DNA from: a virus | Taxonomy: Duplodnaviria; Heunggongvirae; Uroviricota; Caudoviricetes | Length of the DNA stretch: 8,661 bases | IMG/VR virus record: IMGVR_UViG_2713897161_000004 | Strand: one strand, 5' to 3' | Shown: positions 769-8,661 of the stretch, piece after piece | Numbering within the stretch: position 1 is the first letter of the stretch | Layout of the letters: each line of letters opens with the position of its first letter | The notes under the pieces: model-generated | What the model saw: the letters and a program-made list of their open reading frames with translations, nothing else | Told to the model about the DNA's origin: nothing | Databases searched by the model: none | Program-made: the position numbers and the translations under genes

Positions 769-795
769 CCATCCGTTATCTGCGGAGGTGAGGCT

Positions 796-1011
796 ATGAA
801 ATCCATGGATAAGTTAACAACGGGCATCGCCTACAGCACCTCTGCAGGCAGTGCTGGCTACTGGTTTTTACAGTTGCTCGATAAAGTCACGCCCTCACAG
901 TGGGCGGCAATAGGTGTATTGGGTAGTCTGGTATTTGGCATGCTGACGTATCTGACAAATCTTTATTTCAAGATTAAAGAAGACAGGCGTAAGGCTGCGA
1001 GAGGAGAGTAA
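796..1011 (+). CDS. Phage holin, class II pinholin of the phage 21 S type (S21/EssD/EssQ-like), 71 aa, with dual-start motif
   Basis: Tail of ORF 178..1011: [71 protein letters not shown]. Two transmembrane segments: a Gly/Ala/Ser-rich SAR-like first segment and a hydrophobic second. Met1-Lys-Ser-Met4 dual start (antiholin/holin). RBS GGAGGTGAGG at 784-793. The part of the track ORF upstream of 796 is antisense to tnp26 and not coding. Confidence 0.85.
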
Positions 1012-1015
1012 TCCA

Positions 1016-1323
1016 ATGACTCAAGACTATGAACTGGTTGTGAAAGGAGTCCGTAATTTTGAGAATAAAGTTACGGTAACTGTAGCCTTACAGGACAAAG
1101 AACGCTTTGACGGTGAAATTTTTGGCCTGGATGTCGCCATGGACCGTGTTGAAGGAGCTGTGCTGGAGTTTTATGAGGCAGCAGCCAGAATGAGCGTCCG
1201 GCAAGTCTTCCTGGAAGTAGCAGAAAAATTGTCAGAAAAAGTTGAGTCTTATCTGCAGCATCAGTACTCCTTTAAGATTGAAAATCCTGCCAATAAGCAC
1301 GAGCGTCCTCATCATAAATATCT

Positions 1324-1327
<4 letters not shown>
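1016..1327 (+). CDS. ydfR: YdfR-like (DUF1327-type) conserved prophage protein of unknown function, 103 aa, sitting between holin and endolysin
   Basis: ORF 1016..1327, RBS GAGGAGAG at about 1000-1007, no predicted transmembrane segment, acidic. Stop TGA (1325-1327) overlaps the endolysin ATG (1324-1326) as ATGA. Length and position match my recollection of Qin-prophage ydfR; sequence identity not verified. Confidence 0.6.
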
Positions 1328-2350
<1,023 letters not shown>

Positions 2351-2533
2351 ATTAATATTAAATCGGATTATTTTTAGCGCTGAATGTGAAATTTAAATAA
2401 AAAGGACTCTTCCATGAGTCAAAATCCTTGAAATCTTAAGGGTAAGATAAAAGGTCATTAGACAGAATGACACGTTTTATTAATAAATAAAGCTATTGTT
2501 TCATTCGTGTGTTTTTCTTTACAAAAGTAATCC

Positions 2534-2562
2534 TTGCTATGGTTGGTTAATCATGCGTTAAT
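2534..2562 (+). promoter_or_regulatory. Candidate sigma70 promoter for the cold-shock gene (-35 TTGCTA 2534-2539, 17-bp spacer, -10 GTTAAT 2557-2562), with AT-rich UP-like region upstream
   Basis: Hexamers read directly; the arrangement resembles my recollection of the cspA promoter (TTGCAT / CTTAAT) and would give a 5' UTR of about 145 nt. Many alternative -10-like hexamers exist in this AT-rich DNA. Confidence 0.3.
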
Positions 2563-2713
2563 GGTGTTCTGGTTTGTTACAAAATTATCTGAAGCAGTCA
2601 TTGTTATAATTTTATTATTTGTACCTCTTGAGATTTCCTTGTTGGTTTTTCTTTCTGATATTTTTTTTCGGACCATTCTGCCCAAGGGCTAACTTCTTCA
2701 AAAGGTAATAATG

Positions 2714-2926
2714 ATGTCTAACAAAATGACTGGTTTAGTGAAATGGTTTAACCCTGAAAAAGGTTTTGGTTTCATCACGCCGAAAGATGGTAGCAAAGAT
2801 GTGTTTGTGCATTTCTCAGCTATTCAGAGCAACGATTTCAAAACGTTAACTGAGAATCAGGAAGTCGAATTTGGTATTGAGAACGGACCTAAAGGCCCTG
2901 CAGCTGTTCATGTAGTGGCACTTTGA
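2714..2926 (+). CDS. cspI: Cold-shock protein, CspA family (CspI-like), 70 aa
   Basis: ORF 2711..2926: (M)[70 protein letters not shown], with RNP1 (KGFGFI) and RNP2 (VFVHF) motifs. Start taken at the second ATG (2714) to give the family-typical MSNKMTG N-terminus; 2711 is also possible. SD AAGG at about 2701-2704. Confidence 0.85.
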
Positions 2927-3130
2927 GGTAGAAAATATTACAAACCATATTCACTTTAGATGCCCGTGTTGCCATGGTTCTCAGTATAGAACATCATCTT
3001 TTGATGTTTCTGACAGAAATCCTTTCGGGGCAAAATGTATCTTTTGTAAATCAATGATGATTACATTTGATAATATTTCACAATACTTAAATGTTAGCCA
3101 TCTGTCGTTAGATTTAAGAAAGTGAAAATG

Positions 3131-3155
3131 AAGGCTCCTTCGGGAGCTTTTTTGC
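3131..3155 (+). terminator. Rho-independent terminator: stem GCTCC / GGAGC with TTCG loop, followed by a six-T tract
   Basis: AAGGCTCC-TTCG-GGAGCTTTTTTGC at 3131-3155: GC-rich 5-bp stem extendable by A-U and G-U pairs, UUCG tetraloop, T-tract at 3148-3153. It lies about 205 nt downstream of the cspI stop and 43 nt upstream of the next ORF. Confidence 0.6.
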
Positions 3156-3197
3156 TTAGTGTCTAGTCGATGGATACTCACATATTACGGTAACATT

Positions 3198-3428
3198 ATG
3201 AAAAAAATAATAGTTTTTTTTAACTCTGAACCAGCAATGGTAGTGCCAGTGATGACCGGAGTTAACACCATCATGCGTGAATATCCAAATGGCGAAACAA
3301 CACACCTCACTGTAATGGCTGCAGGGTTTCCATCTCTGACCGGAGATCATAAAGTCATTTATGTAGCAGCGGATCGACATGTAACTTCAGAAGAAATTCT
3401 GGAAGCAGCAATGAGACTCTTGAATTGA
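3198..3428 (+). CDS. Small hypothetical protein (76 aa from ATG 3198; 51 aa if started at internal ATG 3273), in the position of a Qin-type cold-shock-associated small gene (ynfN-like)
   Basis: ORF 3159..3428 (the track uses a GTG start): MKKIIVFFNSEPAMVVPVMTGVNTIMREYPNGETTHLTVMAAGFPSLTGDHKVIYVAADRHVTSEEILEAAMRLLN. No family recognised from sequence; weak RBS for either start. Called on position and ORF integrity only. Confidence 0.45.
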   Translation: MKKIIVFFNSEPAMVVPVMTGVNTIMREYPNGETTHLTVMAAGFPSLTGDHKVIYVAADRHVTSEEILEAAMRLLN

Positions 3429-3600
3429 TTTGATTCTAATGCATTGATAATAAATGATAATCATCTTTATCTGTTTGTGTGAAATTTAGACCGTCGTATG
3501 TTGATTATTGCGATGTTTCATCTTATCTTTTATACGTTTGCTCCATATAATTGACACTACTGTGTACCAGGACAGTCATAACAGACTAAAAGAGGAAATG

Positions 3601-3774
3601 ATGAACATTGAAGAGTTAAAAACAAAAACAGAAGCAGATATTTCTGAATATATAACAAAAAAAATCATTGAGCTTAAGAAAAAGACCGGGAAAGAAGTTA
3701 CCAGTATCCAGTTTACTGCACGGGAAAAAATGACTGGTCTTGAAAGCTATGATATCAAGATTGATTTAATCTAG
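3601..3774 (+). CDS. gnsB: GnsA/GnsB family protein (GnsB-like), 57 aa
   Basis: Tail of ORF 3508..3774 from the ATG at 3601: MNIEELKTKTEADISEYITKKIIELKKKTGKEVTSIQFTAREKMTGLESYDIKIDLI, which matches the Gns family pattern (MNIEELK...GKEV...FTAREKMTGLESYD.KI). SD GAGG at 3592-3595. Confidence 0.75.
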   Translation: MNIEELKTKTEADISEYITKKIIELKKKTGKEVTSIQFTAREKMTGLESYDIKIDLI

Positions 3775-3836
3775 CATGTTTATAGTATTAGCATCAATTT
3801 CTCATCAGATGCTATTCAACAATACAAATTACCCAT

Positions 3837-3863
3837 AAACCTCGTTTTTACGGGGTTTTGTTA
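3837..3863 (+). terminator. Weak terminator-like hairpin downstream of the gnsB-like gene (AAACCTCG / CGGGGTTT stem, then TTTTGTT)
   Basis: AAACCTCG-TTTTTA-CGGGGTTTTGTT; the stem includes a G-U pair and partly uses the T-tract. Confidence 0.3.
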
Positions 3864-4069
3864 TATTTAAACATTACCGAATAGATATAAATCTCGATTG
3901 TCGATGGTATTGGTTGTGTGACAATACCTAGTCTTTCCGGTATGCCTGAAGAGAATACAAACGACAGATTATGTAAGGGAAACGCGCTGAAACTTTCACT
4001 CTTTCATGCTGAGTGATTTGACGTTATATTTTTAGCCGCAAGTGAAGAGCAAACGAATGGAGCGACAAA

Positions 4070-4276
4070 ATGCATAAAGATCAATACACTGATGCCCCGT
4101 CCCAGGAGCAGGTTCGTGTAAAAACTATGCTTAATAGCACCATTTCGATGGGTTACCCGGATGTTGTAATTGCATGTATAGAACATCAAGTATCTCTGGA
4201 AGCATTCAGGGCAATTGAGGCCGCGTTAGTAAAGCACGATAAGAATACGAAGGATTATTCCCTGGTGGTTGACTGA
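4070..4276 (+). CDS. Small hypothetical protein, 68 aa, immediately upstream of the cos region
   Basis: ORF 4070..4276: [68 protein letters not shown], preceded by SD GGAG with an 8-nt spacer. No transmembrane segment, no recognised motif. Confidence 0.5.
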
Positions 4277-4599
4277 TCACCATAACTGCTAACCATTCTG
4301 ACCATTTCACAAGTGACAGAGTCAATATCGTATTCTGTCACTGTAAGGCTAATACAGTACTGCAATTCAACTACAGCAATGCCTCGTATTTAGGTGAATT
4401 TACAATATCGTCCAGTTCGGATGCCGGCTGCATTTCTGAAGATAAGGCATTTCGGTTCGCGTATTTTCCCCTCATGCTCGTCAGTCCTGCGCGTAGTAAG
4501 AAACAGGACACTCACACTAATTTGTGTGGGCATGCTGTGATGTCCTTCTGAATTATCCCCATGCCATTATGTAAAGCTCTGTTTCAGATGCTCGTCACG

Positions 4600-4730
4600 G
4601 TTGTCAGGCTGTCGGGTCCTCCCAGTGGGGGTCCCTGCCACGGGGCGGGAGCGTCGCGGAAAAAGGCTAGTTTTTGAAATTTTATTCGTCATCACCACTA
4701 CTGTAATTGATTGATATTACAGTTGTTTTA
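4600..4730. other. Lambda-like cos site: cosN candidate 4643-4654 (GGGCGGGAGCGT), with cosB-like region downstream containing an IHF-consensus match and an inverted repeat
   Basis: Window has ...CCACG GGGCGGGAGCGT CGCGG AAAAAGGCTAGTTTTTGAAATTTTATTCGTCAT...; phage lambda has ...ACG GGGCGGCGACCT CGCGG GTTTTCGCTATTTATGAAAATTTT...CGTCAT... The minus strand at 4703-4715 reads TATCAATCAATTA (fits WATCAANNNNTTR). 7-bp inverted repeat CTGTAAT/ATTACAG at 4700-4721. The site is about 170 bp upstream of the terminase small subunit, as in lambda. Confidence 0.6.
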
Positions 4731-4828
4731 TTTTTATGGTGTCGATTCTGATTGTTTTTTGTTCATCACTAACACCGTTTGCCTAAAGTTGTTCGCAAGA
4801 TGCATGTTTAAAACATTCTGGAGCGGGT

Positions 4829-5323
4829 ATGGATCGAGAGTTAAAAAATCTGACGCTGAATATCAGTCAACTGGCGGCATTGTCAGGTGTACATCGCCAG
4901 ACTGCTGCGGCAAGGCTGCAAAATCTACCCGTTGCAGGGGGGCATGAAAGCAACCTCAAGCTTTATCGGGTGGTTGATATTGTGTCGGCATTTCTGGCAT
5001 TACCACCGCCGGTTGCAGAAGGCGAAATGGACGCGCATGAGCGCAAAGCCTGGTATCAGTCTGAACGTGAGCGTCTTAAGTTCGAACAGGAAACGGCACA
5101 ACTCATTCCGGCCAGTGATGTCAGACGGGAGTTTGCCATCTGGGCAAAAGCGGTCGTGCAGGTGCTGGAGACATTACCGGATATTCTTGAACGTGACTGC
5201 GGTCTGCAGCCTGACGCTGTGAGCCGTGTTCAGTCCATTATTGATGATCTGCGCGATCAGATAGCCCTGCGGGTGACTGAAGCAGGTGCGGATGATGAGG
5301 AGGAATTACAGCAGGAGGAGTAA
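4829..5323 (+). CDS. Phage terminase small subunit (lambda Nu1-like DNA packaging protein), 164 aa
   Basis: ORF 4829..5323: N-terminal HTH-like segment (LTLNISQLAALSGVHRQTAAARLQNLP) comparable to the Nu1 N-terminus, acidic C-terminal tail, SD GGAG at 4819-4822. Stop TAA overlaps the large-subunit ATG as TAATG (5321-5325). Confidence 0.75.
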   Translation: MDRELKNLTLNISQLAALSGVHRQTAAARLQNLPVAGGHESNLKLYRVVDIVSAFLALPPPVAEGEMDAHERKAWYQSERERLKFEQETAQLIPASDVRREFAIWAKAVVQVLETLPDILERDCGLQPDAVSRVQSIIDDLRDQIALRVTEAGADDEEELQQEE

Positions 5324-6807
5324 TGCTGAATCAGGAAACCGCAAAGGCAGCACGAACCGATTCAGGTTATATCCTTCGCGCACCGAGACGAATGCGGGTT
5401 GCTGATGCCGTTGCTCAGTATATGCGGGTGCCCATGGGGGCAGGGAACTCAGTCCCGTGGGATCCGCTGGTGGCACCGTATGTTATTGAGCCTATGAACT
5501 GCCTGGCCTCGCGTGAATACGACGCAGTGATATTTGTTGGCCCGGCACGAACCGGCAAGACTATCGGCCTGATTGACGGCTGGGTGATTTACAACGTGAT
5601 TTGCGATCCTGCTGATATGCTGATCATTCAGATGACGGAGGAAAAAGCCCGCGAACACTCCAAAAAACGACTCGCCAGAACGTTTCGCGTCAGCCCGGAA
5701 GTGGTCAGTCGCCTGAGTCCGAACAAAAATGACAACAACGTTTATGACAGAACATTCCTTGCTGGCAACTACCTGAAAATCGGCTGGCCGTCAGTCAATA
5801 TCATGTCTTCATCAGATTATAAATGCGTGGCGCTGACGGATTATGACCGTTTTCCGGAAGATATTGATGGTGAGGGGGATGCCTTCTCTCTTGCCTCAAA
5901 ACGTACCACCACATTTATGTCCAGTGGTATGACGCTGGTGGAGAGTTCCCCCGGCAGGGATGTGAAGGATGTGAAATGGCGACGGACTTCACCGCATGAG
6001 GCTCCACCAACCACGGGGATCCTGTCGCTCTATAACCGTGGCGATCGCCGTCGCTGGTACTGGCCCTGTCCACACTGTGGTGAGTATTTTCAGCCCTGCG
6101 GCGATGTGGTTGCTGGTTTCCGTGATATTGCCGATCCTGTGCTGGCAAGTGAGGCGGCTTATATTCAGTGTCCTTCCTGTTCAGGACGGATTTTGCCTGA
6201 ACAAAAACGCGAGCTGAACGGACGTGGGGTCTGGTTACGGGATGGTGAATCCATCAATGCAGATGGCAGTCGTTATGGTGATCCCCGGCGTTCACGTATT
6301 GCGTCATTCTGGATGGAGGGTCCGGCAGCTGCTTATCAGACACTCTCGCAACTCGTTTACAAGCTGCTTACTGCAGAACAGGAATACGAGACAACCGGAA
6401 GTGAAGAGACACTCAAGACGGTTATCAATACCGACTGGGGATTACCTTATCTTCCCCGCGCCAGCATGGAGCAACGAAAAAGTGAATTGCTTGAGCAGCG
6501 GGCAGAGCCAGTTCCTTCCCGCAGTGTGCCGGATGGCGTTAATTTCCTTGTGGCGACAGTGGATGTGCAGGCGGGACGTCATCGCCGTTTTGTGGTTCAG
6601 GTAACGGGCTATGGCAGCCGTGGCGAACGCTGGATTATTGATCGTTACAACATCACGCAGTCATTGCGCGGTGACAGCGACGGGGAGAGCCAGCGAATTG
6701 ATCCGGCCAGCTACCGGAGTCGGAAGTTGCCGGACCCTGCAGATGAAGGCGCATTACAGAAATGGAGGTCTGTTCTACCGTTCTTCAAGAGATGGCTATG
6801 GTTTTGA
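5323..6807 (+). CDS. Phage terminase large subunit, lambda GpA family, C-terminally truncated (494 codons versus about 640 in lambda gpA)
   Basis: ORF 5323..6807: Walker A P-loop GPARTGKT, Cys cluster [10 protein letters not shown]...CPSCSG (cf. lambda ACPHCGEEQY), and [32 protein letters not shown] (cf. lambda IDSQLDRYEMRVWGWGPGEESWLIDRQII). The ORF ends about 60 codons after this motif with an unrelated tail (...[16 protein letters not shown]), and tail-fibre sequence follows. Confidence 0.85.
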
Positions 6808-7378
6808 GGAAGACTGGGCAGAAGTTTATACCTCGAAAAATCTTCCACCAGAAAGCTACCCAGTCGGCGCACCAATCCCGTGGCCATCAGATACCGTTCC
6901 GTCTGGTTATGCCCTGATGCAGGGGCAGACTTTTGACAAATCTGCCTACCCGAAACTTGCTGCCGCTTATCCGTCAGGCGTGATCCCTGATTTGCGTGGC
7001 TGGACGATTAAGGGCAAGCCCGCCAGTGGTCGAGCCATATTGTCTCAGGAACAGGACGGCATTAAATCGCACACCCACAGCGCCAGCGCATCCAGTACGG
7101 ATTTGGGTACGAAAACCACATCGTCGTTTGATTACGGCACTAAATCCACGAATAACACCGGGGCGCATACCCATAGTGTTAGCGGTACGGCTGCTTCAGC
7201 CGGTGCACATACCCATTCGATGACATTTGTTTCAGGTGGTTCCAGTGGTGCTCCGGGAAGTGGAGCATCTGATTATTCTAAATACAGTGTTAACACTTCT
7301 TCTGCAGGCGCTCATACGCACTCTGTATTCTTGCTACGGAACATTTCAGTGACTGGGGATATTATGAGGTCAACTTAA
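6743..7378 (+). pseudogene. Side tail fibre protein (lambda Stf-like) C-terminal fragment; supported homologous core about 6857-7326
   Basis: Frame of ORF 6611..7378: [121 protein letters not shown]..., cf. lambda Stf [96 protein letters not shown]...[11 protein letters not shown]. No N-terminal part; ends in out-of-frame ydfI-like sequence ([16 protein letters not shown]). Confidence 0.75.
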
Positions 7379-8661
7379 TCGGCGGCGAACAGCAAATTGC
7401 CGATTTACAACAGCAAGATAATCTTTATACCGTTGCGGAAATGTCGGCCGACGCGTGGACGGCTCGCGTCGTTGGCGTCGTTAAAAAAGCCTTGCACGTA
7501 CAAATAGATGGCTTAGAAACCGTGCTGGCTGCGATGTGTGAACCGCAAATTGCGATTGTCTCTCTGACAATCACCGAAAAAGGGTATTTCCACTCTCCGG
7601 CGACCGGACAGTTAATGCTCGATCACCCGATGGTCGCTGCCGACGTGCAAAATCCCCACCAGCCGAAAACAGCAACAGGGGTGATTGTTGAGGCGCTGGC
7701 TCGCCGTAAAGCGGCAGGACTTCCCGCATTTACCGTCATGTCATGTGACAACATGCCAGAAAACGGTCATGTTATGCGTGACGTTGTCACTTCCTACGCA
7801 CAAGCCGTTGATGTAAAACTGGCACAATGGATCGAAGATAACGTGACTTTCCCATCAACAATGGTGGACCGTATTGTGCCCGCAGTGACAGAGGATACGC
7901 TGGCGAAAATCGAACAACTTACCGGTGTGGGCGATCCTGCGGGCGTTGCCTGTGAACCTTTCCGCCAGTGGGTAATAGAAGATAACTTTGTTGCCGGACG
8001 TCCGGAATGGGAAAAAGCGGGAGCCGAACTGGTTAGCGATGTGCTGCCTTATGAAGAGATGAAGTTGCGCATGCTCAACGGCAGTCATTCATTCCTGGCG
8101 TATCTGGGGTATCTTGCAGGATATCAGCACATTAATGACTGTATGGAAGATGAACAATATCGTTATGCGGCGTATGGCTTGATGTTGCAGGAACAAGCGC
8201 CGACGTTGAAAGTGCAGGGCGTTGATTTGCAAGATTACGCTAACCGATTAATTGCACGCTATAGCAACCCGGCGTTACGTCATCGAACCTGGCAGATTGC
8301 GATGGATGGTAGCCAGAAATTGCCACAGCGGATGTTGGATTCTGTTCGCTGGCATCTGGCGCATGACAGCAAGTTCGATCTGCTGGCGCTGGGCGTCGCG
8401 GGTTGGATGCGTTATGTCGGTGGTGTTGATGAACAGGGAAATCCGATAGAAATCAGTGACCCACTGTTACCTGTTATTCAGAAGGCTGTACAAAGTAGTG
8501 ACGAAGGGAAAGCGCGCGTCCAGTCATTGCTGGCGATTAAGGCGATCTTTGGTGATGATTTGCCAGACAATAGTTTGTTTACTGCAAGAGTGACGGAAAC
8601 GTACTTGTCTTTATTAGCGCATGGCGCGAAAGCGACCGTGGCAAAATATTCCGTGAAGTAA
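7327..8661 (+). pseudogene. ydfI: Mannitol dehydrogenase family oxidoreductase (YdfI/UxuB-like), 5'-truncated: homology begins in-frame at about 7327, first available start is ATG 7441 (406-aa ORF), C-terminus complete
   Basis: ORF 7441..8661; in-frame upstream codons 7327-7440 read [38 protein letters not shown] with no start codon, and a TAA at 7291-7293 closes the frame. This matches the family region after the N-terminal NAD-binding motif (cf. UxuB ...DWGICEVNL...LYTVAE), so the Rossmann GxGxFxRAH segment is absent. Confidence 0.75.

Follow-up and report, generated by a model that had tools for sequence, protein, structure and literature searches.

A terL-stf deletion junction in a Qin-type prophage remnant of Escherichia coli

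The closest described counterpart of the locus treated here is the prophage Qin of Escherichia coli K-12, which lies in ydfJ next to ydfI-ydfZ-rspR and in which a packaging gene abuts a 5'-truncated stf (side-tail-fibre) gene, the head and tail genes being gone (nohA-stfQ-tfaQ-pinQ). The nohA::stfQ joint reads GAATATA/ACCGCG (the slash marks the break), that is, a TA microhomology. We analyzed a stretch of 8,661 nucleotides (nt), filed in IMG/VR as the viral record IMGVR_UViG_2713897161_000004 and called the window below, in which the 5' part of a terminase large-subunit gene (terL) runs directly into an internal fragment of stf. The window carries a Qin-type cryptic lambdoid prophage adjoining ydfI; it occupies the same chromosomal position as K-12 Qin and has the late genes essD/essQ, ydfR, rrrQ, rzpQ, cspI, ynfN and gnsB in common with it. 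The terL-stf fusion is very probably a scar of prophage decay, left when a deletion at a microhomology within an mEp460-type prophage at the Qin position brought the two genes together.

Parents and breakpoint of the terL-stf junction

The window is E. coli chromosomal DNA. In DNA comparison, positions 769-8661 are identical (100%) to the chromosome of ET881, a frog isolate from China, and SW071610, which comes from wastewater in the Galapagos, matches the window at 100% over the junction stretch (6300-7500) as well; both genomes are closed. From 769 to 6718 the window is collinear with the late region of phage mEp460_ev081, at the 99.1-99.6% DNA identity that it shows to mEp460 and its relatives (mEp460_ev081, phi458 and Ayreon); the collinear span runs from the holin gene through cos and stops at terL nucleotide 1916. 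The differences from mEp460_ev081, 7 over 1910 nt, of which two fall in terL and are synonymous, may predate the deletion.

The breakpoint was mapped by an ungapped three-way comparison of the window, the terL parent and the intact stf of phage 2H10 (97% identical). Sequence of terL runs through GCCAGCTA (window 6713), sequence of stf begins with TACCGGAGTCGG (window 6712), and terminase homology ends at 6713-6718 where tail-fibre homology has begun at 6712. The terL stretch is 99.6% DNA-identical to positions 1-1916 of the mEp460_ev081 record, on which nt 1916 is counted; in terL gene numbering the same break is nt 1391. TerL codons 464-465 read TAC-CCG in place of TAT-CCG in seven intact IMG/VR prophages, and if the parental terL carried this allele, the microhomology would be TACC rather than TA. 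No insertion sequence (IS) end, repeat or recombinase site was found at this junction.

In mEp460_ev081 the two break points lie ~19.4 kb apart (nt 1916 to about 21329). Relative to this phage the window has lost the last 707 nt of terL, 17 complete genes and the first ~2.2 kb of stf; the lost genes include those for adaptor, portal, capsid, head closure, neck, tail completion, tail tube, chaperones, tape measure and tip proteins, J and lom. An earlier, sequence-only reading had described a terminase joined directly to an stf fragment with all head and tail genes gone, had expected 15-20 kb between the two in an intact genome and had put the breakpoint within about 6700-6856. Each of these statements is borne out: the three-way alignment places the break at 6712-6713 and yields the TA (or TACC) overlap, and comparison with the intact relative gives the size of the loss.

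The junction is not confined to one record. A 111-nt probe across it matched in full in 2 of 5426 complete E. coli genomes, the same joint occurs in an independent IMG/VR metagenome contig, L129, and the exact 494-amino-acid (aa) product is encoded on 121 contigs (NCBI, JGI, ENA and Logan).

What remains of terL is a gene fragment rather than a working family member. The 494-aa open reading frame (ORF; 5323-6807), which directly follows the 164-aa ORF of the small-subunit gene terS, is assigned by PHROGs to the terminase large subunits and holds a complete ATPase domain (GpA_ATPase, PF05876: residues 41-304, profile positions 2-247 of 247, E=8e-72). The endonuclease domain is incomplete, since only profile positions 1-115 of 294 of GpA_nuclease (PF20454) are matched. 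Collinearity with intact homologues is likewise partial, stopping at residue 464 of 700 in mEp460_ev081 and at 444 of 641 in lambda gpA, and past residue 464 of the ORF no significant terminase alignment was obtained. The product thereby misses 236 of 700 residues, comprising ~60% of the nuclease domain and the entire C-terminal region; lacking these, it cannot be a complete packaging enzyme. The Prokaryotic Genome Annotation Pipeline (PGAP) names it, in ET881 and SW071610, 'phage terminase large subunit family protein, missing C-terminus'.

The stf fragment sets in at a point corresponding to residue 856 of the 1117 in 2H10 Stf and lacks the last ~56 codons; across 6712-7328 it is 97.2% identical to the stf of strain NRZ99027-2. 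It retains features of the C-terminal collar and fibre region, namely a Collar domain (PF07484, E=9e-13) and a Phage_fiber (PF03335) repeat, and matches positions 576-743 of 794 in PHROG 295 (tail fibre protein), while the Stf N-terminal prophage tail fibre domain and the shaft are absent. Homology to stf ends at 7328, ~170 nt short of the stop codon of the closest allele; ydfI follows, with neither the native C-terminus nor the chaperone gene tfa in between. In ET881 the PGAP label is 'phage tail protein, missing N- and C-terminus'. A 255-aa ORF that spans the fragment consists of three pieces out of register with one another and is therefore probably no real gene.

These results also bear on the reading frames that had been singled out from the sequence. 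The large-subunit ORF indeed ends at 6807 after a non-homologous tail, which is stf DNA, and the gpA C-terminal region is missing, as had been supposed. A different frame does encode part of the conserved Stf C-terminal region, collar domain and fibre repeat included; this claim needs refinement in that the 3' end of the fragment is deleted as well, into ydfI. The overlap of the two frames at 6611-6807 is present and trivial, because reading simply passes through the junction.

Table 1. Features around the two junctions, in window coordinates (a dot marks the absence of strand).
Feature	Position	Strand	Evidence or remark
terS, small terminase subunit, DUF1441 type, intact	4829..5323	+	Pfam DUF1441 E=2.4e-42; PHROG 141; WP_032291404.1 in ET881
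terL 5' part, 1391 nt, codons 1-464 of 700	5323..6713	+	100% protein identity to mEp460_ev081 TerL 1-464; PGAP pseudogene
Chimeric 255-aa ORF (34 out-of-frame terL codons, 205 stf codons, 16 out-of-frame ydfI codons)	6611..7378	+	ORF list
Deletion junction 1	6712..6715	.	Crossover within TA (6712-6713), or TACC (6712-6715) given the parental TAC-CCG allele
stf internal 3'-region fragment, 205 codons, frame from 6713	6712..7328	+	97.3% identity to 2H10 stf
Non-homologous TerL tail, 30 stf codons in the wrong frame, then TGA	6714..6807	+	Stretch identical to phage 2H10 stf
Junction 2, TAT microhomology, stf' joined to ydfI at ~nt 126	7326..7328	.	Three-way alignment with the NRZ99027-2 stf parent (L007) and the AR_0128 ydfI parent (L003)
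ydfI, mannitol dehydrogenase family, first ~42 codons missing	7326..8661	+	Pfam Mannitol_dh, Mannitol_dh_C

The sequence of events that we favor would have begun in an E. coli chromosome whose Qin site, in ydfJ beside ydfI, housed an mEp460-type lambdoid phage. Illegitimate recombination via a microhomology of 2-4 nt would then have joined terL nt 1391 to the stf nucleotide that lies 790 nt short of the end of that gene, and the resulting deletion of ~19.4 kb would have taken every head, neck and tail gene. The leftover is a pair of pseudogenes: a TerL with its ATPase, a broken nuclease and a 30-residue junk tail, and a promoterless internal Stf fragment. In a second and later deletion, again at a small homology, the right end of the prophage and the start of ydfI would have been lost. 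Both junctions share 2-4 nt and show no IS end, repeat or recombinase site, which is the signature of illegitimate microhomology-mediated recombination. Parental sequences, break coordinates, microhomologies and allele spread are matters of observation. As regards the pathway, we infer either replication slippage or microhomology-mediated end joining, and the two deletions presumably occurred in the order given.

Two observations weigh against this account. Neither terS nor the terL fragment contains a frameshift or stop, yet rrrQ of the same remnant is frameshifted; the intactness of terS and terL' could hint at retention by selection, though recency of the deletion explains it equally well. 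Moreover, the endpoints are reused with many other partners, and purely random illegitimate recombination predicts otherwise.

Chromosomal context and the second junction

In ET881 and SW071610 the region is a ~12-kb prophage remnant with rspB on one side and ydfI on the other. Its gene order is truncated integrase, Q antiterminator, blc, essD, ydfR, frameshifted rrrQ, rzpQ, cspI, ynfN, gnsB, terS, terL', stf' and ydfI'. The remnant lies at the ydfJ/ydfI locus together with Qin late genes, in a context identical to that of the window, and is defective in that no head or tail gene is left and the integrase is a pseudogene. In the window the prophage lysozyme gene rrrQ appears as two overlapping ORFs (1324-1524 and 1467-1856), for which the PGAP label in ET881 is 'frameshifted'.

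Positions 1-768 of the window are a partial end of IS26, with the transposase gene on the minus strand and the terminal inverted repeat at 755-768. This part adjoins the holin gene region, and at that spot ET881 and SW071610 hold the gene of a helix-turn-helix protein. Because IS26 is absent from these otherwise identical strains, the source of the window is a third strain closely related to them, with an extra IS26 insertion or an IS26-mediated deletion. The mEp460_ev081 record, in turn, shows at 45629-45865 a direct duplication of ~98 nt just upstream of terS, at the right genome end, which is not in the window (4665-4803) and could stem from the cos end or from the assembly of that record.

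Measured against AR_0128, the second junction removed ~4.0 kb: ~170 nt of the stf 3' end, tfaQ, the right end of the prophage, the ydfJ remnant and the ~42 first codons of ydfI (~125 nt). From nt 126 onward ydfI' is 98.2% identical to the AR_0128 gene; PGAP lists it as a pseudogene 'missing N-terminus', and the second deletion inactivates ydfI.

Reuse of the endpoints and its possible causes

Both endpoints of the terL-stf junction recur, as hubs, in related loci (L003, i.e. AR_0128; L006, ETEC4073; L007, NRZ99027-2; L008, K-12 Qin; L116, L130, L154-L157, L162, L164 and L168-L171, the last being S3). These span different strains, different sites (ydfJ, paoD-adjacent, Rac and potB) and two terminase families. 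The stf endpoint of the window, site A, reads AACTTCTA followed by TACCGGAGTCGG in its canonical form, and the canonical left flank is present in 117 of 125 full-length left flanks (loci mostly from IMG/VR). Site B lies 672 nt upstream of it (GGAAT/TACCGGGGCTTTG); of the 40 loci with this pattern, 39 show the canonical form. A third site, C, reads GGGTA/ACCGCGCTG.

Each site has several left partners. Site A is joined to terL 1915 in the present window, to terL 1804 in AR_0128 and 20 other genomes, to a neck gene in NRZ99027-2 and four others (at a different locus, beside paoD), to a lysozyme gene in L116, to a sequence without identification in L130, and to the N-terminal part of a lambda-type A gene in PigCaeca_2, where the lambda parent has no TA at the break. 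Site B follows terL 1915 at the paoD locus of ETEC4073, ynaK of a Rac-type prophage in PE164 and a third sequence in PI12. Site C follows Nu1/nohA in K-12, lambda-type A nt 953 in strain S3, and terL 1915 in MB06021 and NT1F34. Conversely, terL 1915 has at least eight partners on its right. Sites A, B and C and nt 4655 (AMSCJX04) of stf are among them; the others are two places in J, the portal gene and at least one further partner seen solely as a protein tail.

The least biased sample consists of genomes picked for a terL piece and an stf piece lying close together. It contains five distinct junction types, three of which end at terL 1915 and three of which start at stf site A. A rough estimate puts the chance expectation of sharing to this extent below one in a thousand, even with TA dinucleotides alone eligible. 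Other searches were partly aimed at these very endpoints, and their share is overstated accordingly.

This recurrence is the ground for the strongest rival explanation, in which a site- or motif-directed process, such as a break, a pause or a recombination activity, acts by preference on TA(N)CCG sites of the two genes and excises the structural block between them time and again. It is suggested by the number of partners at terL 1915 and at site A (at least six on the left, with genes of a different terminase family among them), by the three left partners each of sites B and C, and by the fact that every hub site reads TA and then (N)CCG. In addition, the 480 nt that follow the break in each type of site-A junction have a different intact stf allele as their closest match, with 98.1-100% identity, and not another junction type. 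Against it stands that TACCGG occurs 15 times on one phage strand, which means that more than the motif would be needed to define a hub, that the searches described below yielded neither an enzyme nor a site, that a series of small deletions, each next to an older junction, could account for several cases, and that the targeted searches inflate the apparent share. We regard such a process as a possibility to be held tentatively. Put more broadly, hub reuse might reflect either motif-directed breakage or recombination or junction-anchored re-deletion, amounting to a stereotyped stripping of virion genes that leaves TerS-TerL(1-464) and Stf-C/Tfa units; this, too, we consider conceivable rather than probable.

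Several specific causes were tried and rejected. Invertases of the Pin/Din kind lack crossover sites here: the Din-family (Pin/Gin/Hin) core AAACC-NN-GGTTT has no match within two mismatches in the stf-tfa-pin region of 2H10, and CCCAAACC, the pix crossover site of e14 (PMC12529663), is absent from the window and the related loci. Hairpins or cruciforms are discounted, as DNA at the three hub sites folds no better than shuffled sequence (z -1.35 to +1.08). DNA gyrase, whose quinolone-stabilised cleavage occurs before G with a 4-nt stagger (PMC6379681), misfits TA/CCGG. Reading the sequence revealed no Chi sites in the protected orientation, and cutting at ^CCGG followed by sticky-end ligation would, by sequence logic, predict GCTAYCCGGAG, one base more than observed. 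A resident IS was rejected with no IS end among about 130 loci, Rpn nucleases for having no sequence specificity (PMC5350276), and a natural mosaic boundary in stf with 0 records starting at site A in a spread sample (60 of 3484). Reciprocal products keeping the opposite side of either hub are absent from IMG/VR, a scan of GTDB species representatives found nothing, a metagenome scan added one junction type, and a literature search returned no description of these hot spots.

Common descent may account for part of the pattern. One and the same mosaic terL allele occurs at the Qin locus of AR_0128, MB06021 and AMSCJX04, and a nested series could be drawn in which terL 1915 was joined first to site C and then to site A, followed by either 1804 joined to A or 1915 joined to 4655. 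The step from 1915 to 1804 at site A can use an 8-of-10 repeat (CAGGTAACGG and CAGCTACCGG), the step from site B to site A a perfect TACCGG repeat, and some pairs of junctions look like serial events abutting an older junction. Descent cannot, however, explain all endpoint reuse. Junctions with a lambda-type Nu1 or A gene on the left and those with a GpA-type terL must be independent, yet at sites A and C they enter stf at exactly the same nucleotide. The neck-gene junction at A and the terL 1915 junction at B each retain DNA that the other lacks, and the match of every site-A junction type to its own intact stf allele likewise speaks against descent.

Some of these loci show a history of their own. 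In AR_0128, positions 11116-12301 compared with window 5422-6607 have ~57-87% identity per 60-nt block until ~6428, while the last ~180 nt of terL before the junction are at least 97% identical to the window; this suggests that the junction-proximal piece was inherited, whereas recombination with another phage brought in a new sequence upstream of it. Strain S3 (L171, 1549-1800) keeps 243 nt of lambda-type A between nohA and stf site C. As K-12 (L008, 9786-9896) joins nohA to the same stf nucleotide, its junction may be a secondary deletion of 236 nt abutting an older one. The remnants beside paoD in ETEC4073 and NRZ99027-2 have the same terS-terL'-stf'-tfa architecture at another chromosomal site, and just downstream of tfa they carry defence cargo: Avs2 in one, and a GIY-YIG protein, a cytosine methyltransferase and a type II restriction enzyme in the other.

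It could also be that the remnant was kept because it is useful, with TerS and a nuclease-dead TerL(1-464) poisoning the packaging of superinfecting relatives, or with the Stf C-terminal fragment masking a receptor. The intact terS and terL codons 1-464, the synonymous nature of the two terL differences from the phage and the retention of the TerS-TerL' unit across many junction variants fit this idea, as does the report that a chimeric Stf fragment from the cryptic prophage e14 blocks T2 adsorption (PMC12529663). In the present locus the Stf fragment lacks its C-terminus and tfa, the synonymous differences may be older than the deletion, and PADLOC, applied to TerS and to the fragments of TerL and Stf, gave no match (0 families at E<=0.01). 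Selection at the protein level, furthermore, cannot explain endpoints that coincide to the exact nucleotide, and we consider usefulness improbable as an explanation. A natural terminase length of 494 aa, or an assembly artefact as the source of the adjacency to stf, has nothing in its favor besides the open frame itself and can be dismissed: residues 465-494 are tail-fibre DNA read out of frame, the nuclease domain breaks off inside its profile, and an identical junction in two independent closed chromosomes (China and the Galapagos) and a metagenome contig excludes misassembly.

The decay scar that we prefer as an explanation documents how one Qin-family prophage was disabled. For annotation, it means that the locus should be recorded as two pseudogenes and not as a novel terminase, and it may also serve as a lineage marker. 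The recurrent endpoints are the sole point of wider interest. If the recurrence holds, the domestication of E. coli prophages would be channelled in part by sequence-specific fragility or by a specific enzyme, and not by random erosion, which would explain why the packaging-gene stub and the tail-fibre tip that survive are the same in so many remnants.

Comparison with known systems

The junction is an ordinary prophage-decay scar of a kind already annotated, as RefSeq pseudogenes and, by analogy, in K-12 Qin. It resembles other illegitimate deletions, such as those of aberrant lambda excision and prophage erosion, in the 2-4 nt shared per junction and the lack of a recombinase site or IS; it differs from them in that the same endpoints recur with many partners, which is atypical of random events. 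Lambda gpA and Stf belong to the same protein families as the two fragments, and the gene order terS-terL ... stf-tfa is common to both. The collinearity with gpA through WIIDRYNI that the sequence-only reading had pointed out does hold, residues 46-462 aligning with gpA 51-444 of 641 and WIIDRYNI standing opposite WLIDRQII. At 24% identity (E=5e-15) and with 641 aa against the 700 of the true parent, lambda is however not parental, and the proper reference is an mEp460-like phage (99.6%). The mEp460 group shares TerL residues 1-464 with the window at the protein level and differs from it in consisting of complete phages of about 45 kb, with a 700-aa TerL, portal, capsid, tail and a 1023-aa Stf.

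K-12 Qin remains the nearest counterpart, with instructive differences. Its packaging gene nohA is a lambda-type Nu1 homologue, joined 118 nt further upstream in stf, and it has kept tfaQ, pinQ, ydfK and an intact ydfI. The window, by contrast, combines a DUF1441 TerS with a GpA-type TerL fragment, has another break and has suffered a second deletion that reaches into ydfI.

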